Origin: Candidatus Sungiibacteriota bacterium
GTDB taxonomy: Bacteria; Patescibacteriota; Minisyncoccia; Sungbacterales; HO2-52-23
Assembly (NCBI GenBank): GCA_016180435.1
Contig: JACPBG010000004.1
Coordinates: 59,660-123,659 of the forward strand
Direction: 5' to 3'
Length of the DNA stretch: 64,000 nucleotides
Shown here one piece after another: positions 1-60,008 of this stretch. The notes beneath the pieces were generated by a model that saw only the letters and a program-made list of their open reading frames with translations, did not search any database and was not told where the DNA came from. Made by a program: the position numbers and the translations under genes. The number at the start of each line of letters is the position of its first letter. The first letter of the stretch is position 1.

Positions 1-22
1 CGGTTTTTTCAATCCAGACAAG

Positions 23-3130: not shown

Positions 3131-3134
3131 AAGC

Positions 3135-3166
<32 letters not shown>

Positions 3167-3257
3167 AGACATGAATGCTAAGATCTAAGTTCTTGAATGC
3201 TAAGTTCTACGTTGCATAGCAACGCTGGCCGCAGTCATAGGAATAAATATCGGATAT

Positions 3258-3989
3258 GTGCTTTTAACCTTCGTGCCTCCGGTGCTCTGGCTTCTTTTTT
3301 ATTTGCGCGAAGATCGGCATCCCGAGCCCAAAACCCTGCTTCTTCTGACATTTATCGGAGGTATGGCATCGGCTCTCCTGGCCATGTTCGCCGAGATAGT
3401 GGCGCTGGGCGGTCCGGAAATGGCGTTTTCGGATTCGTCGTTTCTGCGGCAAAATATATTTATCTTTTTTTTGGTCATAGGACTTATTGAAGAATATGCT
3501 AAGTATCTTCCGGTGAAATTCTTGGTTCTGTCGCGCTGCCGCGACCATCAAAAATGCGATTTTGACGAGCCGATCGACGCCATGATTTATATGATAACCG
3601 CGGCCCTGGGTTTTGCCGCGCTTGAAAACACCCTGTTTTTGTTCCCGTTTTTTAAGGAAAACATCTATTTGGGACTTGAGGTTGCCGCCAACCGCTTTTT
3701 GGGAGCAAATCTTCTGCACGCTTTATCCTCCGGCATCGTGGGTTACTTTCTGGCACGCGCGTTTTTCTCGCCCTACAGGCATCATTTTGTGGCGCTGGGC
3801 ATAATTACCGCCGCCTTGTTGCACACTATTTTCAATTATCTTATACTGGTAAGAGAGGTACTGCCGCAAGGAACGTTTTATATAATCTTTCTTTTATCCA
3901 CTATGGCGGTTATGGTATTCGTGGATTTTGAACGACTCAAAAAGGCGCGAATAATAGACGAATCGCCCAAAACGAATATTAGCGAATAA
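3258..3989 (+). CDS. PrsW-family intramembrane protease-like membrane protein
   Basis: multi-TM; conserved-looking motifs LIEEYAKY (EExxK), GFAALENTLF (FxxxE), LLHTIFNYL (HxxxN). Confidence 0.6.
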   Translation: MLLTFVPPVLWLLFYLREDRHPEPKTLLLLTFIGGMASALLAMFAEIVALGGPEMAFSDSSFLRQNIFIFFLVIGLIEEYAKYLPVKFLVLSRCRDHQKCDFDEPIDAMIYMITAALGFAALENTLFLFPFFKENIYLGLEVAANRFLGANLLHALSSGIVGYFLARAFFSPYRHHFVALGIITAALLHTIFNYLILVREVLPQGTFYIIFLLSTMAVMVFVDFERLKKARIIDESPKTNISE

Positions 3990-4029
3990 CGATATATTTT
4001 GCGCCAAAGGCGGATACATTAAGAAAACT

Positions 4030-4200
4030 CGCTAGTGAGTGTATGGGCGATTGAGTCCGTTTTATTTCAGACAATGGGAGGACAAAATTGCTTGGTTTTG
4101 CGCGAATGCGCGCAAAAATTTTGTCCGACCCTTAGTGAGTCCCGCGCTGGACGGGACGAATCGTGTCTGAAATAAAATGGTGAAAATCGCCATACCGAGT
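4030..4200 (+). promoter_or_regulatory. structured leader upstream of hsp20: long-range inverted repeat (ggcgatt..ttttatttcagaca / tgtctgaaataaaa..aatcgcc) plus internal hairpin GTCCCGcgctggaCGGGAC
   Basis: inverted repeats seen directly, ~4046-4073 vs 4166-4193. Confidence 0.3.
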
Positions 4201-4205
4201 CAACA

Positions 4206-4787
4206 ATGAATACTTTTTTCGAAAAACTTACCAATTCCAAGCCGCAACCCGTTGCGGCCGATATTGGCGCGGAAGAACGCGATGATGAGGCCGCGGTTGT
4301 TGAAAAAGAAGTTACGCCTTCGCAGCCGTCTCCCAAACGCGCGCCCATGCGTAAAATCGCAGCCCCGGTCCAGCTAAAACCCAAACCAACTCAATTAAAA
4401 GTAGAAAGCGAGGAAGCGGAATCAACGGCAGGGGAGAAAGAAAAAGAACTTGAAGAAGAAGGAGAGTTGACTGTAGATATATATGACAATGGTAATGCTA
4501 TTGTAATTCAATCAACCGTAGCCGGAGTAAAGCCGGAGAATTTGGATGTTTCCATAACAACAGATACCGTGACTATTCGCGGGCGAAGGGAAAAATCCGA
4601 AGAGATTAAAGAAGAACATTATTACTACAAGGAACTTTTTTGGGGTTCTTTTTCCCGCTCGGTCATTTTGCCCGAAGAAATTGATGATACTGCCGCAGAG
4701 GCCGCTTTGAAACACGGCCTTCTCACTATCACGCTTCCGAAGAAAAGAAAAGGAGTGGCGCAGAAACTTAAGGTAAAGGTAACCTAA
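4206..4787 (+). CDS. Hsp20/alpha-crystallin family small heat-shock protein with low-complexity N-terminal extension
   Basis: C-terminal alpha-crystallin-like domain LTVDIYDNGNAIVIQSTVAGVKPENLDVSI...GLLTITLPKK. Confidence 0.8.
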   Translation: MNTFFEKLTNSKPQPVAADIGAEERDDEAAVVEKEVTPSQPSPKRAPMRKIAAPVQLKPKPTQLKVESEEAESTAGEKEKELEEEGELTVDIYDNGNAIVIQSTVAGVKPENLDVSITTDTVTIRGRREKSEEIKEEHYYYKELFWGSFSRSVILPEEIDDTAAEAALKHGLLTITLPKKRKGVAQKLKVKVT

Positions 4788-4958
4788 AAATCGCCATCCG
4801 GCGATTTTTTAGTAAATAAGGGTTGGTGTTTATATGATACTGTTCGGACTCATTTTGAGCAAAATCCCGACTGATTTACCCCTTGCTCGCACTCGGACGG
4901 CTCGGCATTCCTCCCCCCAACCCCCTCCTGCCGAGCCGTCCTCACGGTTGTGGCAGTG
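4782..4958. repeat. left terminal inverted repeat (~177 bp) of a TIR-bounded cassette; contains two strong hairpins (terminator-like, and GGACGGCTCGGCA...TGCCGAGCCGTCC)
   Basis: reverse-complement of 9507-9716 nearly base-for-base (right copy has an extra ~26 bp segment). Confidence 0.85.
4786..4812 (+). terminator. rho-independent terminator hairpin AAATCGCC-atcc-GGCGATTT followed by TTTT; also the outer end of the left terminal inverted repeat
   Basis: stem-loop plus T-run directly after hsp20 stop. Confidence 0.7.
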
Positions 4959-4962
4959 GCAT

Positions 4963-5166
4963 TCACGATTTCAATAAACTAGCTCCAAACTCTGAATGAC
5001 ATTTTACACAAAAACCCTTTAGCGTCATTCCAATTGTGTTAATCTTACCGACACTTTCTTTGTAATAGGTGGTACCCCTTACAATATCGCCACTACATCT
5101 ATCGCAACGTCGAGAAACCCGTGCTTTTGTTTCTTTAAGAAACTTAATGCTATCGTATTTACTCAT
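4963..5166 (-). CDS. small zinc-ribbon protein (CxxC...CxxC), last gene of cassette operon; 4-nt overlap with upstream MTase gene
   Basis: RRCDRCSGD ... CVKCHSEFG cysteine pairs; ATGA overlap at 5163-5166. Confidence 0.45.
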   Translation of the reverse strand: MSKYDSIKFLKETKARVSRRCDRCSGDIVRGTTYYKESVGKINTIGMTLKGFCVKCHSEFGASLLKS

Positions 5167-6014
5167 ACGGATTCAGCAAAAGCGTCCGATAGAATCATTA
5201 CCTCTCTGCCTTTGCGCGATTCATAAGCATTATAGTTGAGAGAAAAACTAACGATTTTTCTTTTTGGATATAATGACCTTATTTCTTTCTTGTTATCGTA
5301 AGTAAGTAACCAGAAAGCATCTCGATTCTCATTAAGTTTTTTTGCAAGTGCTTCGTGATTTTCTTTTTGATAGTGGTTGAGGTAAAGTGTTGCCCCCTTT
5401 TCAAAATAAGGGGGGTCGAGATATATGAAAGAGTTTTTCTTGTCTAAATATTCTTCAATCAATTCAAGGCCATCTTTGTTATATACCGAGATTTTGTCCT
5501 TATATCGGCCAAGTTGTTGGATTTTTTTCACCAAACTTTTCTTATTAAATCTTGCATCAATTTTCCATTTCCCTTTTTGGTTTAATCCACCAATAGGTCC
5601 TCCATCTAAAATCCCGGAAATATTAGTTCTATTTAGAAAAAAGGTTGCAAACCCCAGCTTAAAAAGCCATGATTTTGGATTTTCATAAATTGCCTTTTGT
5701 TTTTTCCATTCGTCAATAGTAATTGGGGTTCTGTAAATCTTCCCTACAAACTTTTCTGAATCAAAAATCGCTGACTGCCAAAACGAGTAAATCGCCCTAT
5801 CAAGATCATTAATCACAATTTTTTTGACCCTGCCAGAAAATAAGAGCGCAAGCGCTGCTCCCGCTCCGCCAGCAAACGGTTCAACGTAAGTGAGATTTTT
5901 CAGACCTTGCTCTTTAATAACTTTTTCAAAAAAGGGCACAAGAGAAGTCTTACCTCCAGGATATCGAAGGGGGCTGTGGTAATTTTTCTGATTTTTGTTC
6001 GTTAGTATTTTCAT
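5163..6014 (-). CDS. Dam-family (D12 class) N6-adenine DNA methyltransferase
   Basis: YPGGK near N-terminus, EPFAGGAG (SAM-binding motif I), IYLDPPYFEKG (DPPY motif IV). Confidence 0.85.
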   Translation of the reverse strand: MKILTNKNQKNYHSPLRYPGGKTSLVPFFEKVIKEQGLKNLTYVEPFAGGAGAALALLFSGRVKKIVINDLDRAIYSFWQSAIFDSEKFVGKIYRTPITIDEWKKQKAIYENPKSWLFKLGFATFFLNRTNISGILDGGPIGGLNQKGKWKIDARFNKKSLVKKIQQLGRYKDKISVYNKDGLELIEEYLDKKNSFIYLDPPYFEKGATLYLNHYQKENHEALAKKLNENRDAFWLLTYDNKKEIRSLYPKRKIVSFSLNYNAYESRKGREVMILSDAFAESV

Positions 6015-10343: not shown

Positions 10344-10790
10344 TTAAATTCGCGTATAAGATAATACCAATAATCCGACTAAAACAATTGTAAACACTAT
10401 TTCAGATTTTGAAAATATCGGTAAAAATCCTCTAATCTTATGCTTGAACGGATAAAAATACTGTTTTTCGTCTTGATCGGGCCAGTCCAGAATTAAATGC
10501 ACAAGATAAGCAATAAAGAAATAAAAAGCACCAGTTATATTTATAAATAATATTGGAATAGTCATAACAGCTGCTCCTAAAATAGAATGCGCATATTTTG
10601 TTTTATAGCGTATATTGTGGGCGTCTTCAAATCTCATGCTGTCTATGATTTTATTCCAAGAAAAAATTTTATGCCGGTATAAGACAAATAAATGGTCAAG
10701 GTCGGGAATAATTGAACCCGCCAGCCAAAACCAAGAAAATTGGTAATTATTTACTGGCATCGTACCTATTATTAAGTGCGCAAAAATCAT
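10344..10790 (-). CDS. membrane-bound metal-dependent hydrolase-like protein (YdjM/DUF457-like)
   Basis: LIIGTMPVNNYQFSWFWLAGSIIPDLDHLF pattern (H..G....PDxDH) and 4 TM. Confidence 0.4.
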   Translation of the reverse strand: MIFAHLIIGTMPVNNYQFSWFWLAGSIIPDLDHLFVLYRHKIFSWNKIIDSMRFEDAHNIRYKTKYAHSILGAAVMTIPILFINITGAFYFFIAYLVHLILDWPDQDEKQYFYPFKHKIRGFLPIFSKSEIVFTIVLVGLLVLSYTRI

Positions 10791-10900
10791 ATTATTTTTT
10801 TATCCTCAATTCTAAACTTTGCACGAACCCATTTTGAGCATAACCTTGGGCCATAGTGGGCGCAAGGTGACCTCCGCAGCTCACCCAGCCCCGCCATTGG

Positions 10901-18750: not shown

Positions 18751-19656
18751 TTGATACGATTAAAGTGTCCAAATGATATGATTATGATCCCTTCTCTCGG
18801 TATTTTTTTTGCGATTCTGGCTATGGTGCTTTGGGGGCTGGAAGAGCTTTTTTTAAAAGAATCCCTTGAGCGCCTGCGAAGCACCACGACCTACTTTATT
18901 AACACCGTAAGCGGGGTTTTACTGCAAACCGCGGTAATTTTTTTATTTTGGGGAGGCGGCATAACGCTTTTGGCTCCGAATGATTTTCTTCTGGCGGTTT
19001 TAAGCGCCGGGGTGGCTTTTCTTGGTTTTTATCTTTTCTATCTTGCTCTGGAGCGCCAAAAATTATCGCTTATATCCTCACTGGACGAGAGCTGGATTAT
19101 CGTTACGATTCTGATCGCGGTATTCTTTTTCGGCGAAACATTAAGCCCGCTTCACATATTTTCGATTGTTATCGTGCTTTCGGGCGCATTGTTGATTTCC
19201 GCGGATATTTCAAATCTGCGCAATTTATCGTTTATTTCCGGCTCCGGATATGAATTTTTATCGATCATTTTGATCGGCATCTCCATCCCACTTGAGAAAA
19301 TAGTGCTTGATCGGATCGGTGAAGTAAATGCCATTTTTTATTTAAGCGCGTTGGTTATCCCGTTTATCCTTATCACAAAATTTTTGCGGGGCCATACTTT
19401 TGTAAAAGCACCCGGCAAGATTTTTCGGATAGCGGTATATTCCGGTTTTGCCGACGGACTTGCATTTTTATTCTATCTGCTCGCCATTCAAAGCGTTGCG
19501 ATCTCCATAGTATCCCCCATTGTCGCGTCCAGCGTGGTGGTGTCGGTGATCCTTGCGCGGATATATCTTAAGGAGCGCACGGCGTCCAAAGAGATTTTCG
19601 GAGCGTGTCTAATTCTGGCTGGCGTGATTATTCTTTCCATACTGTCTCCGACATAA
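18751..19656 (+). CDS. EamA/DMT-superfamily transporter
   Basis: 10 predicted TM helices in two 5-TM repeats; typical EamA-like hydropathy. Confidence 0.6.
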   Translation: MIRLKCPNDMIMIPSLGIFFAILAMVLWGLEELFLKESLERLRSTTTYFINTVSGVLLQTAVIFLFWGGGITLLAPNDFLLAVLSAGVAFLGFYLFYLALERQKLSLISSLDESWIIVTILIAVFFFGETLSPLHIFSIVIVLSGALLISADISNLRNLSFISGSGYEFLSIILIGISIPLEKIVLDRIGEVNAIFYLSALVIPFILITKFLRGHTFVKAPGKIFRIAVYSGFADGLAFLFYLLAIQSVAISIVSPIVASSVVVSVILARIYLKERTASKEIFGACLILAGVIILSILSPT

Positions 19657-19672
19657 GGAGGTCTTATGTGTC

Positions 19673-21865
19673 ATGTCTATTTTGGATATTCCAATTGAAA
19701 ACGCGCCGCGGATCAACCGCCGCATTATTCCGGCGCTTAGGCGTTTGGGCATAAAAACCGTGCGCGATATTTTGTTTCATTTTCCCTCGCGCTATGAAGA
19801 TTTTTCGAACGAGAAACAAATTTCTGAAATAAAAATCGGAGAGATAGTAACCATATCCGGAATTATTAAAAGAACCGCTTTGCACCGCACGGCCCGCAAA
19901 CATATGGCGCTGGTGGAGGCGGTGGTTTCGGACGAGAGCGGATCCATAAAAGCCGTTTGGTTCAACCAGCCGTATCTTTTGCGGAATTTCAGAATCGGCA
20001 ACGCTCTGCGCCTTTCCGGAAAAATTGCCCGCGGACCCAAAGGAGTTTATCTGCAAAATCCCGCATACGAGAAGTTATCAGCTACCAGCTACCAACTACC
20101 AGCTCAACAAAGTATCCATACTGGAGGACTGGTTGCAATTTATCCGGAAACGCGGGGCATTACTTCGCGTTGGTTGAGGTTCTTGGTAAAGACCTTTATT
20201 GATCAGAGAAAATTTATAATTGATCCTCTGTCGACCGATGTGCGGAAAAAGCATGTTCTTCCGGATATTCAAACCGCGCTCAAAGTAATCCATTTTCCGC
20301 AAGATAAAAAGGAATCAAATCAGGCGCGACGTCGGTTCGTTTTTGAGGAACTTTTTTTAATCCAACTTCGTGCGCTTCGCGCCCGGGCGTTACTTAAGCA
20401 ATACTCGGCTCCCCAGATTCCGACCAATTTGCCGCTTCTTAAAGAATTCGTGGCGTCTTTGCCTTTTAAGTTGACCGATGCCCAGCGCCGATCCGTGTGG
20501 GAAATCGCGAAAGATATAGAAAAACCGCGTCCCATGAACCGTCTGCTGGAGGGAGATGTGGGGTCCGGAAAAACCGTGGTTGCGGCCGCAGCCGCATTGC
20601 TTGCGGTTCGCGCGGGATACAAGATCGCATTTATGGCGCCCACCGAAATTCTGGCGCACCAGCACTATGATACGTTTCAGAAAATACTTGAGCCGTTTGA
20701 TATAAAAATTGGAATTTTGACCGGCGCGAAAAAATTAGCACAAAATGCGGACATAATAGTCGGCACGCATGCGCTTCTCCACCCCGTTAGAAGTAAGACG
20801 TCGGGGGCGTCTGCCGATCCAATTTTATCGGATCGGACTTCTAACGGGGTAAAAAAATCCGCCAGGTTTGAAAATTTGGGGCTGGTGATTATTGACGAAC
20901 AGCATCGTTTCGGAGTCCAGCAACGAGCGGCGCTTGTTGTACGCGGATCTGCGTTGCTGCCCCACTTTTTAAGCATGAGTGCAACCCCCATTCCGCGCAC
21001 TCTTGCCCTTACAATCTATGGAGACTTGGACCTTTCCATATTGGATGAGATGCCAAAATCGCGGAAACAGGTTATTACGAGAATCATAGAGCCGGGGAAA
21101 CGGAATGAGGCATACCAATTTATTCGATCAGAAGTAAAAAAAGAAAGACAAGTTTTTGTGATATGTCCGCGCATAGAGCCATCACCAACGAATAACCCCG
21201 AAGTAGAACCATCGGTTCACTACGGGGCAGGCGAATCCGGCGCGAATAAACGAATAAATGAATCGGCGTTTCGCTTGTGGGAGGTTAGGGCGGTGAAAGA
21301 TGAATATAAAAAACTTTCCGAAACAATTTTTCCCGAATTTAAAATAGGAATGCTTCACGGCAAATTAAAATCCAAAGAAAAAGAGGCGGTGATGAAAAAA
21401 TTTAAAAGCGGAGAAATCGATATTCTGGTTTCAACTTCGGTGGTGGAGGTCGGCGTGGATATACAAAATGCCACGATCATGATTATAGAGGGCGCGGAGC
21501 GTTTCGGGCTGGCACAACTTCATCAATTCCGCGGCCGCGTGGGGCGCGGGACTGATCAATCATATTGTTTTCTTTTTCCCACCGAGGACGGCATGGTAAC
21601 GCGGCGTCTGCGCGCGGTGGTGGATGCCAGAAACGGATTTGAGCTGGCGGAGCAGGATCTGAAAATCCGCGGTCCCGGCGATCTTTTCGGGACGGAACAA
21701 TGGGGAATTTCGGATACGGCCATGGCCGCAATTACCGATTCGGTTTTGGTCCGAGAGGTGCGCTCTGCCGCTTATGATTTGATGCGTGAAGACCCCCTGC
21801 TTTTACTTGTGCCGGAGTTAAAGCGCAAACTTGAAGAGATTGAAAAAACAGCTCATCCGGAATAA
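19673..21865 (+). CDS. recG: ATP-dependent DNA helicase RecG, carrying in-frame palindromic-element insertions
   Basis: LEGDVGSGKTVVAAAAALLAVRAGYKIAFMAPTEILAHQH (Walker A region), LVIIDEQHRFGVQQR (DExH), helicase C motifs; wedge-domain region FNQPYLLRNFRIG. Confidence 0.9.
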   Translation: MSILDIPIENAPRINRRIIPALRRLGIKTVRDILFHFPSRYEDFSNEKQISEIKIGEIVTISGIIKRTALHRTARKHMALVEAVVSDESGSIKAVWFNQPYLLRNFRIGNALRLSGKIARGPKGVYLQNPAYEKLSATSYQLPAQQSIHTGGLVAIYPETRGITSRWLRFLVKTFIDQRKFIIDPLSTDVRKKHVLPDIQTALKVIHFPQDKKESNQARRRFVFEELFLIQLRALRARALLKQYSAPQIPTNLPLLKEFVASLPFKLTDAQRRSVWEIAKDIEKPRPMNRLLEGDVGSGKTVVAAAAALLAVRAGYKIAFMAPTEILAHQHYDTFQKILEPFDIKIGILTGAKKLAQNADIIVGTHALLHPVRSKTSGASADPILSDRTSNGVKKSARFENLGLVIIDEQHRFGVQQRAALVVRGSALLPHFLSMSATPIPRTLALTIYGDLDLSILDEMPKSRKQVITRIIEPGKRNEAYQFIRSEVKKERQVFVICPRIEPSPTNNPEVEPSVHYGAGESGANKRINESAFRLWEVRAVKDEYKKLSETIFPEFKIGMLHGKLKSKEKEAVMKKFKSGEIDILVSTSVVEVGVDIQNATIMIIEGAERFGLAQLHQFRGRVGRGTDQSYCFLFPTEDGMVTRRLRAVVDARNGFELAEQDLKIRGPGDLFGTEQWGISDTAMAAITDSVLVREVRSAAYDLMREDPLLLLVPELKRKLEEIEKTAHPE
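20782..20849. repeat. RPE-like palindromic element, family 1 (CCCCGTTAGAAGT...ACTTCTAACGGGG), inserted in-frame in recG adding ~23 aa (PVRSKTSGASADPILSDRTSNGV)
   Basis: terminal 13-bp inverted repeats; same termini at 29584-29684 and 59050-59183. Confidence 0.8.
21196..21227. repeat. palindromic element family 2 copy (CCCCGAAGTAGAA-n8-TTCACTACGGGG) inside recG
   Basis: shares TTCACTACGGGGCAGGCG with 18661-18680. Confidence 0.6.
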
Positions 21866-27427: not shown

Positions 27428-27558
27428 AAGTTAACGTGCTGGGTTAGATATACGACATAATTATATAAAATACAAGGGCGTCTCGTACCAAATAAAATTC
27501 CCGTCACGTAAACGTAACGGGCTACTAAGTTCTAAGATCTAAGTTCTTGGTGCTTGTC

Positions 27559-29493
27559 TTAATCTTTCCACAGGTTATTGGCCGCGTATTTGAGAATCAC
27601 GTCCACGCAGCTCGGGCAGTATCCATGCTCAAGGAGATTTTTGGTCATCATGTCGTATTTTTCCGTTTGCTCCGTGTCGCGCATGCGCGACTTGGTGATA
27701 ACCCGGCTTAGGTCGCGCACCGAAGTGATGAGTTTTTTCTCAATGGCCTCTTTGAGTGGCTCGTAACTGCGGAAGTCAATCTTTTCTTCGCGCCGCTTGG
27801 CTGCCCATAGATAGGAGATCACTTCCTGGCGGAATCCGTCGGCGGCCGAGCCGATGATGGCGATTTGCTCCTCGATTGATTTCATGAATCCTTCGTCGGG
27901 CGCCAACTCTTCTTTGGTGTTGCGATCCTTTACTTTGCTCTTGTTAACGTAGGCCTCGGCGTGATCCAGGTAATTCTGGAATAGCGCCTCCGCCTGCTCC
28001 TGGTAGGAATAGACAAACGCGCGGGTAATCTCCTTTTCCAGCACCTCAAGGTACTCCTTGTGCAGTGTATCCTGGAGAAACTCCAGATACTGCTTGCGCA
28101 TTTCGTCCGACAGATCAGCTTCCTTCACCATGTTGATCAGCGCTTCCCGAACATTGATGGGGTTGATGCAGTTGCCAGCGGTATTGTCGGTGAGCGCGTT
28201 ATCCAAGGCCTTCATTATGAAGCGCGTGGAAATACCGTTCATGCCTTCGCGTTTGGCTGCCTCGCGCAATTCCTGTACATCAACTTTCTTGGTGCGCCCC
28301 TTCTCAAGCACCTCTTCGCCGTTATACAGCTTCAGCTTGGTCATGAGGTCGCACTTGTTGGTGGGCTCCAGGCGCGACAGGATCGCGAACATGGAGGCGA
28401 CCTCCAGGGTGTGCGGCGCCACGTGGGCGCGGAAGTCGGAGTTGCGGATGATCTTCTGATAAATTTTAACTTCTTCGGAGAGGCGCAGGTTGTAGGACAC
28501 GCGAATCACCACAATGCGATCCAGAATCGCTTCGTTGGTGTGGTCTCCCTTGAATTTCTGCCACTCAGCCTCGTTGGAATGGGCCACGATAACTGTGTCC
28601 ACATAGACCAATCCGTGGCGGCCGGGCGCGGGCACAACCTTTTCTTGGGTCGCCGTGATCATGCAATGGAGATACTCGATTTCGTTTTTGAAAACCTCAA
28701 TGAACTCAACTATGCCGCGGTTGCCAACATTAAGCGCGCCATTTAGTTCCAGGACCCGCGGATCGCCCTCGGAATAGAGATCCAACTTCGAGATATCTTC
28801 GCTGCCGATCAGTACGGAAGTATCTTGGTTATTGGAATCCACAGGCGGAACCGATGCGGTACCGACCCGCGCGCGTTTGGAAAATTCCACGGTAGTAATT
28901 GGGAAGTCCTCATACTTGCCGCCGAACTCTTCTTTAAGCCGATAACGGCAGACCGGACACAGGTCGCCTTCAATGTGAATTCCCAGCATCTTTTCAAATT
29001 CTTTTCTCAAGTGGCGCGGTATCAAATGCAGGGGCTCTTCGAACATCGGACAGCCATCAATGGCGAAGATGGGATCGCTTGCCTCCAGGCCTCGATTCAG
29101 TTTTTCCGCAAGCGAGCTTTTGCCGGAACCCACCGGACCCATCAGATAGAGCACCTGGCGGCTTTCTTCACCTTTGAGCGATGCGGCGTGGAAGTAGCGC
29201 ACGATCTGGCTGACTATTTTCTCGATGCCGAAGAACTCATCGGTGAAGAAATCGTAAACCTTGATTGACTCGTCTTTGAAAAGACGTTTAACGTGGGGGT
29301 CGGTGCTTTCCTGAATGTCGCGGACGCCTGCTTTGACGATGATGTCATAAAAACGGGCGTGAGCCAGCTTGGCGATGGAGGGATCTTCCTTGATCTTGTC
29401 GAGGTAGCCGAGTAGCTTCCCGCTCCAATCATTTCGCCTATGGTGTGTTTCTCGGTCCTGTCTGATCAGTTCTCTGTATTCGTCTTCGCTCAT
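27559..29493 (-). CDS. prkA: PrkA-family serine protein kinase (YeaG-like)
   Basis: LYLMGPVGSGKSSLAEKL, FGGKYEDFP, NGALNVGNRGIVEFIEVFK, HCMITATQEK, IVAHSNEAEW, EEQIAIIGSAADGFRQEV. Confidence 0.85.
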   Translation of the reverse strand: MSEDEYRELIRQDRETHHRRNDWSGKLLGYLDKIKEDPSIAKLAHARFYDIIVKAGVRDIQESTDPHVKRLFKDESIKVYDFFTDEFFGIEKIVSQIVRYFHAASLKGEESRQVLYLMGPVGSGKSSLAEKLNRGLEASDPIFAIDGCPMFEEPLHLIPRHLRKEFEKMLGIHIEGDLCPVCRYRLKEEFGGKYEDFPITTVEFSKRARVGTASVPPVDSNNQDTSVLIGSEDISKLDLYSEGDPRVLELNGALNVGNRGIVEFIEVFKNEIEYLHCMITATQEKVVPAPGRHGLVYVDTVIVAHSNEAEWQKFKGDHTNEAILDRIVVIRVSYNLRLSEEVKIYQKIIRNSDFRAHVAPHTLEVASMFAILSRLEPTNKCDLMTKLKLYNGEEVLEKGRTKKVDVQELREAAKREGMNGISTRFIMKALDNALTDNTAGNCINPINVREALINMVKEADLSDEMRKQYLEFLQDTLHKEYLEVLEKEITRAFVYSYQEQAEALFQNYLDHAEAYVNKSKVKDRNTKEELAPDEGFMKSIEEQIAIIGSAADGFRQEVISYLWAAKRREEKIDFRSYEPLKEAIEKKLITSVRDLSRVITKSRMRDTEQTEKYDMMTKNLLEHGYCPSCVDVILKYAANNLWKD

Positions 29494-29583
29494 CTTTTTT
29501 CTCCTTGTTTTGTGGCCAATATTGAGTTACCAAAGATCACATTACGTAAGCGCACTATAGCGCAAACCCCCATAAAAAGTCAA

Positions 29584-29684
29584 CCCCGTTAGAAGTTTGG
29601 TCCTGAAATCTCCATACGATTCAAATAATCCAACTATTATTGTGATGACGCATACACCGGGTGAGGATTACACTTCTAACGGGG
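29584..29684. repeat. RPE-like palindromic element family 1, intergenic copy
   Basis: CCCCGTTAGAAGT ... ACTTCTAACGGGG termini. Confidence 0.8.
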
Positions 29685-29962: not shown

Positions 29963-31674
29963 TAACTCATATTTATTTCATCTTCATTTTCCGGATGTGT
30001 ATCGGATATCGCCGGTCTGAATTTTTTGGCGGCGCGATTTACTTGCGCCAGCGCTTTTCTGTCGCGGGCGGATATTTTGTAACGCTCCGGGTCGAGGTTT
30101 TTGATATATAGGATTTTGGCGGATCTCTTGCCTGCATTAAATACAAAAGTAAACTCTTCCCAAACAGAGTCAACCAGGCATTTTTTATCGAGCTCGCGGG
30201 AAAAAATTATCCGGAGTATTTCTTCGCGCCAGTTAGCGCGCGTGCGTTCCGGCGGATTTTGCGTGGCCCACCTGACAAGATTTTCCGGAAATAATTTTTT
30301 AATAAGGCCGGCGCGAAGATACTGGCCGTAGGGACTTTGGGCGGTGTCCATGAATGCGTACTCGGATATGAACTCAAGAATATCTCGCAAAACATCCTGG
30401 TTGGAAGATGTGGGGATTTTTCCAACCGGCCGTTCTTCGCCGCGCGGCAGGATAGCTTCCGGATCAAACCCTCGGCTTTTCAGATACGGCATGATAAAAT
30501 AATGCAAAATCGCGGCCCAATCCAGGAATTGCGCAAGATACGGGAGGTCCCAGTGGGCGATCGCATCAATTATGTTTTCCCAGAGATTAAGGGCAAGTTT
30601 CCGTTCCGGGCTGAAGGATTGGCGTCCCGGCCCCGCAAAAAATTCCTGCGCCTGTTTTATGTAGAAGCGCTGGAAATCAAGCGCGTTCCAGCGTAAACCC
30701 TCTTCCAGAAGCGAAACCGGATTTTTTGATCCGGGGTCGGCGTTAAAAAAAAGCGAGGCCTCGAATAAATCCATCGGATAAATGTTCGGCGGGATCTTTA
30801 GAAATTTCTCTTCGGCCATGGTCAGAATAATGTCCAGCGTTGCATATTTCAAAAACAATTGCCATGCGGACATCGTGGAATTTCCTGACACATCATGGTG
30901 GCGTCTCCATCTCGTTTTGTCTGCGTATTGAGAATCTTTTTTTGAGAAGAAACTGGGTTTGTCTTCGGCCTTCCTGTTATTTTTCATGACCTCGGCGCGT
31001 TGGGAGAGGACAAACTGCAGGGTGTTGTCCGTTGCATTGATTTTTATCCAGCCGTTTCCAATAAGGCACCAGCGCGATATTAAAAACGGTATAATTAATT
31101 CGAAAAAATCACTGCGTTTGGAAAAGACCGATTTTTTTACCAAATAATTGGCATGCGAGCCCCAGCTGTTAACATCTAAATCCACCATCGGATACAATTC
31201 CACGTCGTAACAACAATTTCGGTTGGTCTTATAAAGTTTGAAATCCAAACCGGTTTTTCTTTTCAGGCGCCGCATCATCTGCGTCATAATCTGGAGCCCC
31301 GCGCTCTCAAAAAGCGCAAGTTCCAGGGCGCCCAGGCACTCCGGAGTGGAATATTCCACATGTTCGTTATCTATATAGATGATTCCTTGATTAGGAAGAA
31401 CGGCTTTGGGACGCCGGTTTGAGAAGCTGTCGTCATCCGGGTTGATTAGCCGGCGGCGGTCTTGTTTTGAAACCGCAGCGCGCAGAATCAATGGCTGATT
31501 TTCCGATTCCTTGACAAGAAGAAAAGGCTCCGGCGAACTTAATTCATTTTCGGCGCCCATGATGCGATGGATTATTCTTTCGGTTTTTTGCGAACCCATG
31601 CGTGTACCGTATTGAATTGGCAAGTTCCTGAATAAAGCATCGCAAGATATACGAAATAAAGCAAGCGGCGGCAT
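29962..31674 (-). CDS. PafA/Dop-family (Pup ligase/deamidase family) homolog 2; start may be internal Met (~31599)
   Basis: RIMGAENE (cf. RIMGIETE), IYIDNEHVEYSTPEC (cf. LYLDVGSHPEYATAEC), WGSHANYLV (GCHENYL), FVLSQRAE (LSQRA), RRHHDVSGNSTMS (RRLHVIVGDSNMS). Confidence 0.7.
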   Translation of the reverse strand: MPPLALFRISCDALFRNLPIQYGTRMGSQKTERIIHRIMGAENELSSPEPFLLVKESENQPLILRAAVSKQDRRRLINPDDDSFSNRRPKAVLPNQGIIYIDNEHVEYSTPECLGALELALFESAGLQIMTQMMRRLKRKTGLDFKLYKTNRNCCYDVELYPMVDLDVNSWGSHANYLVKKSVFSKRSDFFELIIPFLISRWCLIGNGWIKINATDNTLQFVLSQRAEVMKNNRKAEDKPSFFSKKDSQYADKTRWRRHHDVSGNSTMSAWQLFLKYATLDIILTMAEEKFLKIPPNIYPMDLFEASLFFNADPGSKNPVSLLEEGLRWNALDFQRFYIKQAQEFFAGPGRQSFSPERKLALNLWENIIDAIAHWDLPYLAQFLDWAAILHYFIMPYLKSRGFDPEAILPRGEERPVGKIPTSSNQDVLRDILEFISEYAFMDTAQSPYGQYLRAGLIKKLFPENLVRWATQNPPERTRANWREEILRIIFSRELDKKCLVDSVWEEFTFVFNAGKRSAKILYIKNLDPERYKISARDRKALAQVNRAAKKFRPAISDTHPENEDEINMS

Positions 31675-31710
31675 GAAAAAACGGGGAATATTCCCCGTAG
31701 AAATAAGTAT

Positions 31711-34994: not shown

Positions 34995-35092
34995 TTGTCG
35001 ATTTTTCCTGGAAAAGTTCTACTTTATTCTTATCATCCCGCGTCAAATAGCGCAAATTAAAAATCGGCCCGGCGGGGTCTTAGTTTTTGAAA

Positions 35093-35164
35093 TGGGGATG
35101 GCAGGGATCGAACCTGCGACGGCCGTCTTATAAGGGCGGTGCTCTACCACTGAGCTACATCCCC
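35093..35164 (-). tRNA. tRNA with anticodon TAT (UAU; Ile-type), acceptor GGGGATG/CATCCCC
   Basis: anticodon loop CTTATAA read by hand from cloverleaf; one C:A mismatch in anticodon stem. Confidence 0.6.
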
Positions 35165-35246
35165 ACAAAAAAGCTTGCCCTCCTAAATTTTGCAATACAA
35201 AATTTTGGAGGGTGAAGAAGGACAAGCCAAGCCACATGCTCATAAA

Positions 35247-48134: not shown

Positions 48135-48190
48135 TCAGTCGATCTTTTGATTGTTAACATCATACTACGATCGTATATAGTTGTTAACAA
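48135..48190. repeat. ~45-bp palindromic site GTTAACA-n3-TACTACGATCGTATATA-n2-TGTTAACA, copy 1
   Basis: near-identical direct copy at 48820-48868; each copy internally palindromic. Confidence 0.75.
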
Positions 48191-48222: not shown

Positions 48223-48804
48223 TCAGTTTTTGAGTAAATTCTCTATTGTTCCACTTTTTTGTATGCTCAAAATATGAACTTTATTTTTGAGACGCAATTC
48301 ATCCAGCCGTTCAATAAATTGCTGGGGAAGCGGATTAAAGCCGAGCCACACGCTTTTTTGCAGGTGCCGAAATCCGCAGGCGGTCAATTCCATGCGCACT
48401 ATATCACGCTTTCGTCTTTCTCGTTCCGGAATGTCGAAAATAACCAGACGCGGGATACCATCTTTTTCCGGTATTTCCAGGACAATTTCCTGTCGCTTAT
48501 GCAATCGCAGTTTACCTTTTGTGGTAATATGCCACCGGGAATTTCGTGAGGATCCATTGCGTCCAACCAGTCCATGTCGCTTTAGACGGGAAAGAATGGC
48601 GGAGAGCGTGCGGGGAGAAACCTCGGGACTGGAATCTAATCCGAAAAGGCGGCGGCCAGATGATGTGAAGGAATATTGAGGAGGGAAGAAGGCGTCAAGA
48701 AATACTTTTCCTCCCTCTGCGAGTTTCTCCAATACAAGCCGCGTGATTGAGCGATTTTTTACATATACGCGGGAAGAGGGTTTTTGCATGTAGATTTTTA
48801 CCAT
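48223..48804 (-). CDS. winged-HTH protein with C-terminal Cas2-like/PaaX-C-like domain
   Basis: N-term wHTH-like LVLEKLAEGGKVFLDAFF; C-term LVIFDIPERERRKRDIVRMELTACGFRHLQKSVWLG resembles Cas2 core (vYDi...RR...k.L...G.r.Q.SVf). Confidence 0.4.
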   Translation of the reverse strand: MVKIYMQKPSSRVYVKNRSITRLVLEKLAEGGKVFLDAFFPPQYSFTSSGRRLFGLDSSPEVSPRTLSAILSRLKRHGLVGRNGSSRNSRWHITTKGKLRLHKRQEIVLEIPEKDGIPRLVIFDIPERERRKRDIVRMELTACGFRHLQKSVWLGFNPLPQQFIERLDELRLKNKVHILSIQKSGTIENLLKN

Positions 48805-48819
48805 AAAAATAGATATTAT

Positions 48820-48868
48820 GGACTGTTAACAATGTACTACGATCGTATATAACTGTTAACATTTGATG
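48820..48868. repeat. ~45-bp palindromic site copy 2
   Basis: direct repeat of 48135-48190. Confidence 0.75.
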
Positions 48869-48942
48869 AAACTTAATTTTTTGCTTTAGTAACACCTTAT
48901 TTTATCCACGTACCAGAAGACCACGGGCTTGCCCGTGGAGCT

Positions 48943-49368
48943 TCATTTCAGTATGTCAATTCCCATTGAGCGGGCCGTACCCTCGATTATTTTTTCTGCG
49001 GCCTCGGGGTTCTCGGCGTTTAAATCCTCCATTTTGCGCTCGGCGATCTTTCGGATGTCTTCGCGGGTAACACGCCCCACCTTCTTTTTATTCGGCTCTC
49101 CGGACCCCTTTTCCACGGATGCGGCTTTGCGCAGCATGTCGGATGCCGGCGGAGTTCGTAATTTAAACTCAAAACTACGGTCTTCAAAGATCGTAATTTC
49201 CACGGGCACAATTTCTCCCTCCATTTTTCCGGATGCCTCGTTATATTTTTTTACAAAGTCCCCGATATTGATGCCGTGCGGCCCGAGAGCCGTGCCTACC
49301 GGCGGCGCCGGAGTGGCTTTGCCGGCCGGAAGCTGGAGTTTAAGTTTTACTTTAATTGGTTTGGCCAT
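48943..49368 (-). CDS. rplK: 50S ribosomal protein L11 (start at [12 protein letters not shown])
   Basis: [45 protein letters not shown]. Confidence 0.9.
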
Positions 49369-49369
49369 G

Positions 49370-49420
49370 TTTTTACAGATTAACACAGATTTCTCACAGA
49401 TGTTCACAGATCACAGATAA
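49370..49420. repeat. array of CACAGAT heptamers (x5, irregular spacing)
   Basis: inverted counterpart ATCTGTG array at 49803-49845. Confidence 0.7.
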
Positions 49421-49847
49421 ATTGTTTTCTATCGTTTGTATGGATATATCTGCAGGGCTTTAACGTTTTTTCTGCGAAATTTACCGCATACCCAAGTTCA
49501 TATTTGCTTATTTTTAGATACTCTAAGAGTTGTCGTCCGGCTTCAATCATTTTATGCGGCGGGAGCGCCTTTAGTTCTACCAGCACTTTATCATTTATAA
49601 GATAGTCGGGCACAAAGAAACCAATTCTTTTTCCATTAGTCACAGAATGCAGTGTTATTTTGGGCTTCGCGATAAACGAAATTTTAGCTTGTTCGAGTTC
49701 CTCTTGAAAGGCGCGGTCATATATAATTTCTCTATGCCCAGATCCGTATTTATTATGCGCCGCAAACAGGCAACCGATTATTTTATGACATAATTCTTTT
49801 TCAGGAAATCTGTGATCTGTGTTGATCTGTGTAGAATCTGTGGGCAT
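49404..49847 (-). CDS. GxxExxY-family protein (PD-(D/E)xK-like), inserted between nusG and rplK
   Basis: N-term [30 protein letters not shown] and C-term [10 protein letters not shown] are the family hallmarks. Confidence 0.7.
49803..49845. repeat. array of ATCTGTG heptamers (x4-5)
   Basis: inverse of 49370-49420 array. Confidence 0.7.
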
Positions 49848-49853
49848 CGGTGT

Positions 49854-50399
49854 TTATAGTTTTTTTATTTGTAATGAATCCAGTTCTACGGGCGTGTCGC
49901 GGCCGAATACGTTAACAAGCACCTTGATCTTGCCGCGGTCCTGGTCCACTTCCGATACTTTGCCGTCAAAGTCCTTAAAGGGGCCGTCGGTAATTTTTAT
50001 CGGATCCCCGATCAATACATCAATTTTGAATTTGGGTTCCTCCTCTCCGACGCGATTCAGTAAAACCTCCATTTCTTCGGGTGAAAGCGGAGTGGGCGTG
50101 GTGCCGGCGCCGATAAATCCGGTAACGCGGGGAGTATTTCGCACTACGTACCAAGAGTCGTCGGTCACGACCATCTCCACCAAAACATACCCGGGATAAA
50201 TTTTTTCTTCAACTACGCGCCGTTTCCCGCTTTTAATTTTTATTTTTTTCTCCACCGGCACGAGCACGTTGAAAATTTTATCCTCCATACCCATGGATTC
50301 GATGCGTTGTTTTAAGTTTCGCGCAACCGCATCCTCATACCCGGAATAGGTATGGACCGCGTACCAATTGCGCCCGAATTCCGATGTTTGTTTAGGCAT
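49854..50399 (-). CDS. nusG: transcription termination/antitermination factor NusG
   Basis: NGN domain WYAVHTYSGYEDAV..., KOW GDPIKITDGPFKDFDGKVSEVD. Confidence 0.9.
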   Translation of the reverse strand: MPKQTSEFGRNWYAVHTYSGYEDAVARNLKQRIESMGMEDKIFNVLVPVEKKIKIKSGKRRVVEEKIYPGYVLVEMVVTDDSWYVVRNTPRVTGFIGAGTTPTPLSPEEMEVLLNRVGEEEPKFKIDVLIGDPIKITDGPFKDFDGKVSEVDQDRGKIKVLVNVFGRDTPVELDSLQIKKL

Positions 50400-50412
50400 A
50401 TCGTGCTTTGCA

Positions 50413-50529
50413 CCGCAATGATGCCAATCTACAAATGAAATGCTAATCTACAAATTGCGAATAAATTCTTTTTACAGTATTCGCGATTCGCTAGATTGGC
50501 ATTAAATTCGCATCGGATTGGCATCACTG
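50413..50529 (-). ncRNA. ~117-nt structured repeat element occupying the whole nusG 5' region (between secE stop and nusG start); copy A
   Basis: outer stem TGATGCCAATC/GATTGGCATCA, inner GCGAAT/ATTCGC hairpins; paralog at 50729-50859. Confidence 0.45.
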
Positions 50530-50715
50530 CTAAAGAATGAATGTATTCAAAATAAACTGGAATAAATAATCCAGCCCTCCCAAAAATACGGCAATGACCA
50601 GGCTTACGGCAACCACGGTTACTGTATAGCGAATCGTGTCTTCGCGATTCGGCCAAGTTACTTTTTTGAGTTCAAGCCTGGTTTCTTTAAGAAAAGTAGT
50701 AAGACGTTCCAACAT
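50530..50715 (-). CDS. secE: preprotein translocase subunit SecE (start at MLERLTTF)
   Basis: 61 aa, single C-terminal TM, KKVTWP motif. Confidence 0.8.
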   Translation of the reverse strand: MLERLTTFLKETRLELKKVTWPNREDTIRYTVTVVAVSLVIAVFLGGLDYLFQFILNTFIL

Positions 50716-50728
50716 ACCGCGCTTCGCG

Positions 50729-50859
50729 CCGCAATGATGCCAATCTATAAATCTTATGCTAATCCACAAATTGCAAATGAATATTCTCGATAGACTCGAA
50801 TAATAATTATTCGCAATTCGCTAAATTGGCATTAAATTCGCATCGGATTGGCATCACTG
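50729..50859 (-). ncRNA. ~131-nt structured repeat element copy B, 14 nt upstream of secE start
   Basis: direct repeat of 50413-50529. Confidence 0.45.
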
Positions 50860-51109
50860 TGGCCTTTTTTAAAAGGCCCGCAGGCCCTTAGTATTTCAAG
50901 CATACTGCAATATGGCGCAAGATGTCAATAGTCCCTAAATATCAAGATTTTTCACTGCTTTTGCGTGTGTCTGAACCCCGCACTAAAATTTCGACCGCCG
51001 CAATCTTGTTCTTTGGTTTGAGAAGGAATCTTTATTCACGAGAATTTCGCTCCGGCTTAGTCGGGGCGGCAACGAAAAGTCGAAATTTAGTTACGGGGCA
51101 AGTAAATTT

Positions 51110-58324: not shown

Positions 58325-59962
58325 TCAATTTTTACTTATGCCGAATGATACGGAAATCAAGTCAAGAATTGTTTTTTCCGGATAGGTTTTAAGCAGAGTT
58401 TGATAATCAACGTAATATTTTGTCTGTCCGTAGTATCGGACAAATGAGGGCGGCATATCGCCGTGCCACACTGATCCGGAAAATGGCAGAAAATAGAGCG
58501 AGGGGAAAGAGCGCGTGATAAAGAGCTCTTTTAACTCAAGGGGTTGGGGAAGAAGCGCGGTTAGTTTCATCAGGTTCCGGTTTTCAGCAACTCCCCGGCG
58601 GATGAGTGCTTCAAAATATCCGCTTTTCTCCCGGTTGACCTCAATAATTTCGCGAAGCAGGTCCGGAGTATCGTTTCCGGCAAGTTCGCGTAATTTTCCA
58701 TCCGGATATTTTTCAAGTGCCAATCGGATGGCGTAAAGCACCCGGTCCTGCGTTTCACGCCAGATCGGATCTGCTTTAAGAAATGAGTCAATTGCGGACA
58801 CAAGTTCGGGCAATTCTATATTCCAGTGGCTGGCGCGCCACTCCAGCAGCAATTTCCGCACGCGATATAGCGTAAAAATCTGGGCGTGGTAGGAAACATC
58901 CGGACAGGAATAATAATTGAAGTTTGGCTGCCAGTAATATTCAAGTCCGGCTTGGCGGAGCGGCTTGAAAAATCGCGTTTCCTCGCCATAACTCAGGGTG
59001 AAGTGAAAAAAGGTTTGGCGTATGGAAAGCGGAGTAAGAAATTTGTTGACCCCGTTAGAACTCCGCTGACTCCTGCTCGCCTCGCTAAAGCTATGGCGAA
59101 GCGGGTCGGCGGTAACGGCAGAGATAGTCGATGGGGGTGTAATACCCTCATCGGCGGGTTGTGAAGCGCCCGTTCTAACGGGGTTGACGCGCGCCAGGTA
59201 AAAAAGATCGCGTTCTCCTTTGGCCGGGTCTCCTCCACAGCCAGTCGGAATTTCGGCCAAAGGCATGACCGGCAGCCACTTCATGCGTTCAATGATTTTT
59301 TTTGTAAATGCAAGGTTACGCAGTTCGTCGGGGGCTAAAATCGGATTTGGCGCTATGACAGGCGCGGCAATGGTAACCGGCAAGGATGGCGCGGCGCGTT
59401 GAGTCGGGGTTTTTGCGTTTGCGATCAGCGCCGAAATATTGGAAAGAAGCATTTCGCGGGTTATAACGCTTGTCCCATAATGGTAAAATTCATTTTTTGT
59501 AACGCGGGGCAGATTTTCTAGCGCGTTTTGATATTGTAAAAGATCTTTTTGATATAACGCTGCAGTGCGGTTAAGCGCCCGACGGTATGTTAAAAAATTT
59601 TTCAATGCCAGATTTTTTATAAATGCGCGGCGCGTCTCCTCCAGGTTCGGCAGTGATTCCAGAAAATCAATAGGGTGAAAAGAGGTTTCAATGAGCTGTT
59701 TGTCCCCATCTTTAGGATAGAGGGCGGCGACTGCGTTGACGGTTTCTTTCAATTCTTTTATTTTAACGCGGAGCGTTGCGGTGTCTGCTCCCGTAAGCCC
59801 AAAACGCGGTTGGGTCCGGGCTTCCTCCAGCGCCGCAAAAATTATTTGTCTTGACCATCCCCAGATCAGCAGTATGGAAACGCAAATAAACGCCAAGGCG
59901 GTTACGCCTTTGCGCAAATTATCCGTTTGCAGCAGTTTTCTATTTTTTTTATTTATGTTCAT
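58325..59962 (-). CDS. hypothetical N-terminally anchored protein, paralog of 61373..62731; carries in-frame RPE-like insertion
   Basis: C-terminal RSFPSLYFLPFSGSVWH aligns with RSYPSLYYLTFNRSVWR in paralog. Confidence 0.5.
   Translation of the reverse strand: MNINKKNRKLLQTDNLRKGVTALAFICVSILLIWGWSRQIIFAALEEARTQPRFGLTGADTATLRVKIKELKETVNAVAALYPKDGDKQLIETSFHPIDFLESLPNLEETRRAFIKNLALKNFLTYRRALNRTAALYQKDLLQYQNALENLPRVTKNEFYHYGTSVITREMLLSNISALIANAKTPTQRAAPSLPVTIAAPVIAPNPILAPDELRNLAFTKKIIERMKWLPVMPLAEIPTGCGGDPAKGERDLFYLARVNPVRTGASQPADEGITPPSTISAVTADPLRHSFSEASRSQRSSNGVNKFLTPLSIRQTFFHFTLSYGEETRFFKPLRQAGLEYYWQPNFNYYSCPDVSYHAQIFTLYRVRKLLLEWRASHWNIELPELVSAIDSFLKADPIWRETQDRVLYAIRLALEKYPDGKLRELAGNDTPDLLREIIEVNREKSGYFEALIRRGVAENRNLMKLTALLPQPLELKELFITRSFPSLYFLPFSGSVWHGDMPPSFVRYYGQTKYYVDYQTLLKTYPEKTILDLISVSFGISKN
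59050..59183. repeat. RPE-like palindromic element family 1 (134 bp) inserted in-frame in 58325..59962, encoding NPVRTGAS...SSNGV
   Basis: CCCCGTTAGAACT ... CGTTCTAACGGGG termini. Confidence 0.8.
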
Positions 59963-59965
59963 CGT

Positions 59966-60008
59966 ATGTCAATTGTCAACTGTTAATTGTTAAATGTTGG
60001 TTGTCAGT
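59966..60008. repeat. 7-bp tandem repeat (NTGTYAA x6): atgtcaa ttgtcaa ctgttaa ttgttaa atgttgg ttgtcag
   Basis: seen directly between 58325..59962 start and 60004..61419 end. Confidence 0.7.

Follow-up and report, generated by a model that had tools for sequence, protein, structure and literature searches.

In a stretch of 64,000 nucleotides (nt) from a Candidatus Sungiibacteriota bacterium (contig JACPBG010000004.1, positions 59,660 to 123,659; hereafter the window), a small gene for a GxxExxY protein lies between nusG and rplK, two housekeeping genes that usually stand side by side, and is bounded on either side by inverted arrays of the heptamer CACAGAT. We read positions 49375-49851 as one unit, a selfish, operon-riding cassette of mobile type whose phased motif arrays would serve as its functional ends, and we hold this reading with moderate confidence. 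Comparison with relatives supports the view that the cassette at nusG-rplK is an insertion, and the architecture of gene plus arrays is widespread across many bacterial phyla. No published description of such a nuclease-gene-plus-arrays cassette was found in the searchable literature.

The GxxExxY gene and its inverted arrays

That a PD-(D/E)xK-like GxxExxY gene stands between the two host genes had been proposed in a preliminary description of this DNA, and profile matches together with the gene coordinates confirm it. The open reading frame (ORF; 49404-49847, minus strand) encodes 147 aa and matches the Pfam family PDDEXK_3 (PF13366; E 8.4e-22, 78.2 bits against a cut-off of 22) and the NCBIfam model TIGR04256, 'GxxExxY protein' (77.4 bits, cut-off 35). 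The upstream host gene is nusG (49854-50399, minus strand; NusG and KOW domains in Pfam) and the downstream one is rplK, for ribosomal protein L11 (48943-49368, minus strand; Ribosomal_L11_N and Ribosomal_L11 domains). Within the ORF the nuclease domain occupies residues 17-133, the Pfam domain residues 17-128, and the motif residues are G37-H-R-E40-I-I-Y43, D81 and E91-L-K93. A sequence search found no solved structure for the ORF. In the AlphaFold2 model (mean pLDDT 86) residues 1-12 are disordered; residues 2-13 are those encoded by the 5' array. The top Foldseek match in the PDB was 3ijm, a 'restriction endonuclease-like fold superfamily protein' (E 5.7e-4, TM 0.41, a weak match), and further weak matches to RecE, LHK-Exo and DUF820 nucleases were to generic restriction-endonuclease-like folds, which gave no clue to a mechanism. 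The predicted fold of the ORF is restriction-endonuclease-like (PD-(D/E)xK), with weak structural matches.

An exhaustive profile-free search matched 2,279 clusters (50% identity) at E <= 1e-3, and about 40 of the best 150 cluster representatives were at least 300 aa long. Residues E40, Y43, D81, Y110 and N123, all of which lie outside the peptide pattern that retrieved our comparison loci, show no variation across the 78 aligned domains, among which are the in-frame copies. K87, E91 and K93 are also invariant, but fall inside that pattern. The invariance of the catalytic residues means that the GxxExxY protein is no decaying cargo.

The window has 11 occurrences of CACAGAT where 3.1 +/- 1.7 would be expected, and none of 100 shuffles reached 11. 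Eight of these copies fall in two clusters, at 49384-49418 (plus strand) and at 49808-49842 (as ATCTGTG). In gene orientation, the 5' arm (49808-49851, minus strand) consists of four exact CACAGAT units, read on the plus strand as ATCTGTG at 49808, 49815, 49825 and 49836, and a degenerate outer end; it covers the ATG of the ORF (49845-49847) and codons 2-13. The 3' arm (49375-49418, minus strand) shows on the plus strand a degenerate fifth unit, ACAGAT, at 49375, followed by CACAGAT at 49384, 49395, 49405 and 49412. It holds the final five codons of the ORF and the TGA stop at 49404-49406 (FICDL*), and its end is separated from the rplK ATG by 6 nt. Together the two arrays make the longest inverted repeat of the window, with 44-nt arms that are 77% complementary and have 389 nt between them. 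Inverted arrays that flank the gene and reach its first codons had been described from the outset, and these positions bear the description out; the heptamers are not strictly tandem, however, since their start-to-start distances are 7, 10 and 11 nt. The census of arrays and paralogues, envisaged earlier for the whole genome, was carried out within the 64-kb window, where we found no further CACAGAT array and, by phmmer against all six-frame ORFs, no second GxxExxY gene.

The ORF shares the reading frame of nusG (TAA ACA CCG ATG), the nusG stop lying 6 nt ahead of its ATG. A consensus scan of secE-nusG-GxxExxY-rplK gave a sole strong promoter candidate, TTGACA and TATGCT with an 18-nt spacer (50899-50928, minus strand), ahead of secE (50530-50769, minus strand), and no terminator-like site between nusG and rplK. 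Among the free-standing cassettes compared, 25 are co-oriented with both neighbours and 4 are antisense. Taken together, the co-orientation, the sole promoter ahead of secE and the absence of a terminator fit read-through expression from the host operon. An identical arrangement, with the same protein and context, is present on 14 independently assembled contigs, and the cassette is therefore not an assembly artefact.

When the minus-strand RNA of 49360-49870 was folded, the arrays paired around the whole ORF in both the minimum-free-energy and the centroid structure (z = -4.25); so paired, they would bring the nusG stop and the rplK start side by side. Rfam matched nothing at the cassette, its matches in the window being six tRNAs only. 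The cassette has terminal inverted repeats, as have classical insertion sequences and transposons, and Pfam gave no transposase family match for its ORF.

Insertion at the nusG-rplK junction and recurrence elsewhere

We searched for NusG homologues and inspected their contigs at nusG-rplK. In two relatives whose NusG is 90% (L098) and 86% (L100) identical to that of the window, nusG is followed by rplK after 78 and 68 nt, respectively, and the GxxExxY gene is absent. Two others carry different cargo at the junction: a 75-aa hydrophobic ORF with AGAAAT-type repeats on both sides (L102, NusG 85%; 10547-10880), and a histidine kinase with a response regulator (L103, NusG 83%; 3046-5219). The gene and its CACAGAT arrays are found at this junction in L009-L014, whose GxxExxY protein is 86% identical to that of the window, and in L224 and L225 (69% identical). 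With relatives that lack the gene or hold other cargo, the junction is a variable spot and the gene is lineage-specific, which supports the insertion proposed in the preliminary description; the relatives either lack the gene or, as L009 and L224, have it with arrays, contrary to the case, named earlier as a refutation, of relatives that all have it here but no repeats. Candidate 'empty array hairpins' in the nusG-rplK spacers of L098 and L100 were dropped, as their folding (z -0.5 and -1.75) was no better than that of shuffled sequence.

The diverged copies also bear on what is conserved in the element. At third codon positions the ORF of the window and that of L224 share only 34% identity, close to saturation. 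All the CACAGAT units in both arms are nevertheless invariant among the window, L009 and L224; substitutions fall in the spacers, and the spacer changes between the window and L224 are not compensatory. The invariance of the units despite near-saturated third positions shows that purifying selection acts on the arms as nucleic-acid motifs. Their coding content is not what is conserved, because in L224 the arrays lie wholly outside the ORF. As to the earlier suggestion that the insertion was repeat-mediated, the repeats did prove to be part of the element and under selection; the step of transposition or homing is one that we infer.

A scan of species-representative genomes yielded 299 relatives, of which the best 80 were examined. 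By eye, most of the examined loci have a short-unit array upstream of the gene and its reverse complement downstream. One homologue (L015, 42% identical), for instance, sits between the genes for the ATP synthase beta and epsilon subunits (atpD/atpC) within inverted CACAAAT arrays. An exact hexamer repeated in both flanks in inverted orientation was found at 16 of 82 GxxExxY loci and at 1 of 534 controls. When a 7-mer with at most one mismatch was sought in inverted orientation, at least three copies on each side were present at 60/83 loci (controls, 11/168) and at least four at 33/83 (controls, 0/168). Arm-to-arm local alignment scores of at least 30 were reached by 63 of 82 loci and by 4 of 161 controls.

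The units vary by lineage, yet their polarity is always the same and they share a ...GA(Y) theme. Candidate-phyla bacteria and Planctomycetota have CGCAGAC, CGCGGAT and CACGGAC (consensus CRCNGAY), and Bacteroidota, Cloacimonadota and Ignavibacteria have CAGGATT, CAGAATT and CTGATT, the Bacteroidota patterns being NNGGATT or CAGAATT. From start to start, the units are 10-11 nt apart in 62 of 151 intervals, 21-22 nt in 25 and 7 nt in only 5; so spaced, they form helically phased motif arrays and not strict tandem heptamers. Five Bacteroidota loci (L081, L089, L093, L096 and L097) also have conserved outer termini, GTCTGAATCA ... TGATTCAGAC, beyond the unit arrays, and at L083:3897-5254 inverted CGGATT arrays bound the GxxExxY gene together with a 283-aa ORF of no identified family.

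In 47 of the 80 cases the domain is embedded in one uninterrupted ORF (450-980 aa), with the frame kept and no stop codons (in-frame loci: L021-L069, L078, L082, L092); in candidate-phyla bacteria such insertion into RecG, LepA or SecA is frequent. By Pfam, the hosts are RecG, LepA, other GTPases, SecA and a glycosyltransferase, and they contain the host domains and PDDEXK_3 only. In RecG the insert separates the DEAD domain from Helicase_C (motifs II and III), in LepA and in another GTPase it splits the GTP_EFTU domain, in SecA it is near the C-terminus, and the glycosyltransferase in L031 has two GxxExxY inserts. The arrays of in-frame inserts are translated as hydrophilic linkers. Extra arrays occur elsewhere in the same protein in L049 (LepA) and L069 (RecG), and one insert-bearing RecG is labelled 'GxxExxY protein' in a public database.

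The inserts are patchily distributed and do not follow their hosts closely. Only 7 of the 120 closest RecG homologues have a PF13366 insert. Among RecG hosts with 85-91% identity to one another, the inserts share only 29-57% (P0183 and P0179, for example, have a host identity of 0.88 and an insert identity of 0.29), whereas in a contrasting pair hosts and inserts are both 61% identical. Insert and host identity are weakly correlated, with Spearman coefficients of 0.25 for RecG and 0.06 for LepA. The inserts group mainly by host site, with crossings, LepA and SecA inserts being found among those of RecG. Patchy spread and the turnover of inserts at one site would fit site-biased homing or cassette replacement, but they are not proof of it. 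For the selfish character suggested in the preliminary description the case is circumstantial: the cassette recurs in unrelated operons, stands in frame in RecG, LepA and SecA, is patchy in distribution, and its inserts turn over. The recG gene of the window itself (19628-21862) is uninterrupted at the GxxExxY insertion site (...ALVV-RG-SA-LLPHF). At this empty site the DNA (20942-20953) reads CGCGGATCTGCG (peptide RG-SA), just a single unit and then a single inverted one; it could be the footprint of an excision or else a target.

Proposed mechanism, known systems and competing explanations

In the reading that we prefer, a small GxxExxY nuclease gene between mirror-image CACAGAT arrays, with copies about one helical turn apart, forms one cassette inserted in the secE-nusG-rplK operon. 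Having no evident promoter of its own and lying in sense orientation, the cassette is probably transcribed, and perhaps translated, through host expression. Most likely the encoded nuclease, or a partner of it, would recognize the arrays as phased sites on double-stranded DNA while the cassette is copied or exchanged between sites, in a manner akin to homing or cassette replacement. The arms may also, as a by-product or in a second role, pair in the transcript into a long interrupted stem that loops the insert out; the geometry would be that of the 23S rRNA intervening sequence, which RNase III excises. The comparisons show the anatomy of the cassette, its status as an insertion, the recurrence of its architecture, selection on the units and on the catalytic site, and the turnover of inserts; the identity of the protein that reads the units, a mobility step at the level of DNA and RNase III processing are the elements of this scheme that we infer.

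The preference for duplex DNA comes from the mismatches between the arms. At mismatched arm positions transversions and transitions number 430 and 210, the 2:1 ratio of random change, and on the sense strand 87 mismatches are G-U-compatible and 123 are A-C, so that there is no excess of G-U. Together with the non-compensatory spacer changes, these figures speak against base-pairing as the main constraint on cassettes that bear the gene. Taken with the 10-11 nt phasing, the mismatch data favour arrays that would be recognized on duplex DNA, in the way of transposon ends to which proteins bind at several sites, the RNA stem being secondary.

The closest known system is the ORF-bearing intervening sequence of 23S rRNA, found in Coxiella burnetii and also in Leptospira. 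The Coxiella element measures 428 nt and is closed by a terminal stem of 28 bp; ahead of its ORF stand three to four GACAGAT heptamers in tandem, and RNase III cleaves at the first of them. It is viewed as a selfish element whose origin and mobility are described as unclear (PMC4990558). The likeness lies in an element of about 430-480 nt within a highly expressed, conserved transcription unit, in inverted heptamer termini (the Coxiella unit is one base off CACAGAT) that pair into a predicted enclosing stem, and in a small ORF (about 120-150 aa) in the loop, with repeats reaching the start codon. The differences are in the host, the 23S element residing in helix 45 and the GxxExxY cassette in an mRNA operon spacer or, in relatives, in protein-coding genes; in the cargo, a PD-(D/E)xK nuclease (PF13366) and not the four-helix-bundle S23p (TIGR02436); and in the units, which are 7-11 nt apart with unpaired spacers in the window and form a near-perfect tandem stem in the 23S element. 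As the cassette lies outside rRNA and has a different cargo, we treat it as working like an intervening sequence and not as a member of that class. Genes of the TIGR02436 family, to which the intervening-sequence ORFs belong, likewise occur outside rRNA, at L031:301-726 (minus strand) with inverted CTTGGA arrays and at L088:1602-1973 (plus strand) with CAACT arrays in the same orientation on both sides.

RAYT/REP (REPIN) systems also have one nuclease-type gene between inverted short repeats, with gene-less hairpin copies elsewhere. RAYTs, however, are homologues of HUH/Y1 transposases, whereas PDDEXK_3 is the sole domain of the window protein, and REPs are single imperfect palindromes of 20-40 nt, where the ends of the cassette are phased 7-nt units. 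Identity with a RAYT was rejected, there being no HUH/Y1 (IS200-like) domain. Homing endonuclease genes and inteins resemble the cassettes in that a nuclease gene has settled at conserved positions in essential genes and is translated in frame with its host, is patchy among close relatives and is replaced at the same site; they differ in that repeat arrays form the flanks here and, in the window, the copy lies between genes. That the cassette is an intein or an intron-borne homing endonuclease was rejected, as Pfam found no Hint domain and Rfam no group I or II intron RNA. Rickettsia palindromic elements have no ORF; they are palindromic DNA that lies in the reading frame of protein-coding genes and gives the product an additional surface segment. 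In the cassettes, by contrast, the palindrome arms enclose a complete nuclease domain. The ends of foldback and CACTA-type transposons are inverted arrays of short motifs with multiple protein-binding sites. These are eukaryotic elements with unrelated transposases, and the resemblance of their ends to those of the cassette is one of analogy only. Like the cyanobacterial STRR and Beggiatoaceae TAACTGA arrays (PMC4679880), the units are lineage-specific 7-nt intergenic motifs of compact genomes; those arrays are mostly direct repeats, with no enclosed nuclease gene or inverted partner reported.

Several observations weigh against a mobile, self-reading cassette. A superfamily survey lists the function of PF13366 as 'unknown', and no member of the family is known to have nuclease activity or DNA-binding specificity. 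The comparison loci were picked by similarity to the window protein through one conserved peptide pattern and are a biased sample. There is no convincing target-site duplication at the cassette, only a weak likeness between ATGCC ahead of the 5' arm and ATGGCC past the 3' arm. No mobility event was seen, all 14 contigs of the population carrying the cassette. The grouping of inserts by host site is also compatible with old vertical inheritance and fast divergence, and for most pairs vertical inheritance of a fast-diverging insert may account for the identities. A metagenome scan for three closely spaced CACAGAT units gave at least 120 loci. Among the 120 listed, a GxxExxY gene adjoins the array at only 2, hairpins without a gene account for 30, and 86 consist of one array, in most cases intergenic. 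Since nearly all of these arrays occur without the gene, it may be a different factor, and not the GxxExxY protein, that reads the units.

The idea that CACAGAT arrays are specific to the GxxExxY gene was accordingly rejected (118 of the 120 listed array loci lack it). The gene-less hairpins have the form CC-ACAGAT-N3-4-C-ACAGAT-N3-4-C-ACAGAT, then a loop and the mirror image. Among those listed, polarity is 28:2, spacer lengths are equal in 27 of 28 pairs and the spacers are about 62% complementary. They could be non-autonomous derivatives, as in RAYT/REP, or independent elements. No four-helix-bundle gene was found at the 120 listed array loci.

The hairpins matter for another explanation, in which the arrays act mainly in RNA and the cassette is a true intervening sequence: an RNase III-like enzyme would cut the stem and remove the insert, the nusG and rplK messages would be normal, and the nuclease would be passive or decaying cargo. 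We consider this unlikely, yet serious enough to be weighed closely. The predicted long-range stem does enclose the ORF, Coxiella provides a precedent with nearly the same heptamer and an RNase III cut at the first repeat, and the start codon and those next to it are located at or within the stem, so that the ORF would be silenced; the matched spacer lengths and partial complementarity of the gene-less hairpins also speak for pairing. In gene-bearing cassettes, however, the spacers are unpaired at random, with no sense-strand excess of G-U over A-C, and their changes between the window and L224 are non-compensatory. What is more, in-frame inserts keep the frame without stops, which would be needless if the RNA were excised, and the invariant catalytic residues argue against a decaying cargo. 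A search of the 64-kb window for an RNase III signature motif was negative, a result that is uninformative for the whole genome. The hairpin could instead be native to the nusG-rplK junction, as a regulatory or processing element that serves, for example, the control of L11, with the GxxExxY gene a domesticated, host-beneficial nuclease caught in its loop. We regard this as improbable. Other junctions of the operon do carry repeat-built hairpins, the nusG-rplK spacers of relatives hold short purine-arm/pyrimidine-arm repeats, and the cassette has been kept across proteins 69-100% identical. Against this, the spacer hairpins of the relatives are built of unrelated units and fold no better than shuffled sequence, most Sungbacteria have no cassette at nusG-rplK, and the presence of the same cassette type in atp operons, RecG, LepA, SecA and a glycosyltransferase argues against a function tied to the junction.

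A link with defence had also been entertained in the preliminary description; that the gene is for an anti-phage or toxin-type nuclease placed in a strongly expressed operon seems to us very improbable. PD-(D/E)xK nucleases are common defence effectors, and the family model cross-matches Cas4-like genes (PMC8934634). Searches with PADLOC and PHROGs gave no match, though, there are no partner genes, the neighbours (secE, nusG, rplK) are housekeeping genes, and in-frame insertion in housekeeping proteins is unlike the pattern of defence islands. A phage collection gave no match and a plasmid collection four weak ones, to non-mobilizable replicons. Chance clustering of heptamers, or an artefact of assembly, has only the short length of the unit in its favour and is scarcely credible in view of the 0/100 shuffles, the 14 independent contigs with two diverged relatives, and the 60/83 loci with inverted arrays.

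If the cassette is the mobile element that we favour, its bearing may be wider. It is possible, though we put it forward as a tentative and rather doubtful proposal, that GxxExxY cassettes and, by extension, ORF-bearing 23S intervening sequences form one unrecognised class of autonomous bacterial mobile elements. In such elements a minimal PD-(D/E)xK nuclease would read the phased 7-nt units at its own inverted ends and would copy or exchange the cassette into conserved, highly expressed targets, including in-frame, intein-less sites in RecG, LepA and SecA. Since about 1990 there has been no settled account of the origin or mobility of ORF-bearing rRNA intervening sequences (PMC4990558). The window locus ties PF13366, a large family without an assigned function, to that puzzle, and it shows the same heptamer-ended architecture with an ORF in the loop outside rRNA, with a nuclease as the cargo. 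Many 'long' RecG, LepA and SecA proteins of candidate-phyla bacteria are, what is more, housekeeping proteins with an intact nuclease domain, which bears on their annotation and on the tolerance of small genomes for insertions. The comparative data offer testable handles in the conservation of units against saturated synonymous sites, the phasing of about 10.5 nt and the differing inserts in near-identical RecG hosts.

Other repeat elements and neighbouring genes of the window

The other repeat-built hairpins of the window use units different from CACAGAT. A gene-less hairpin of about 120 nt, with units ATGCCAATC / GCGAAT, is present in the secE-nusG spacer (50410-50530, minus strand), and a second copy lies upstream of secE (50740-50860); their folding z-scores are -7.8 and -5.0. 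In the sister species L009 both of these positions carry hairpins of unrelated units (GAACAGC and ACGAAT). The valS gene (2-3127) is flanked on both sides by GAACTTA/TAAGTTC array hairpins (36-114 and 3135-3213; z -5.6 and -6.4), and its coding sequence holds in-frame heptamer arrays of TCCAAAT (about nine copies) and AAATCAC (four copies) at 2739-2806 and 2954-2983. Its catalytic domain is split by a histidine-phosphatase insert (His_Phos_1, residues 578-758), and the segment preceding this domain, within an inserted region of residues ~460-760, appears ASCH-like by eye. A CTAAGTT array is present at 27525-27547.

Four palindromic elements of the form CCCGTTAGA...TCTAACGGG lie at 1172-1195, 20783-20848, 29585-29683 and 59051-59182, and they seem to be a second family of palindromes inserted in frame. 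Three of them, those of valS, recG and the ORF at 58328-59968, are in frame within coding sequence; that at 29585-29683 is outside the rough gene calls and has one open frame. Each element encodes 'PVR...SNG(V)', a signature that is found at other positions in the RecG homologues P0138, P0163 and P0197.

Downstream of the cassette, rplK is not followed by rplA; a hairpin at 48921-48938 and then a PaaX-like regulator come after it. The latter, a PaaX_M/Cas2-like gene (48223-48804, minus strand), is bracketed by two near-identical 38-nt palindromic boxes, TGTTAACA...TGTTAACA, at 48152-48189 and 48824-48861, which may be operator sites. Elsewhere in the window, genes for a PrkA-type kinase and a Pup-ligase-like protein are adjacent (27562-29526 and 29965-31710), and a tRNA-Ile with anticodon TAT is located at 35092-35165.

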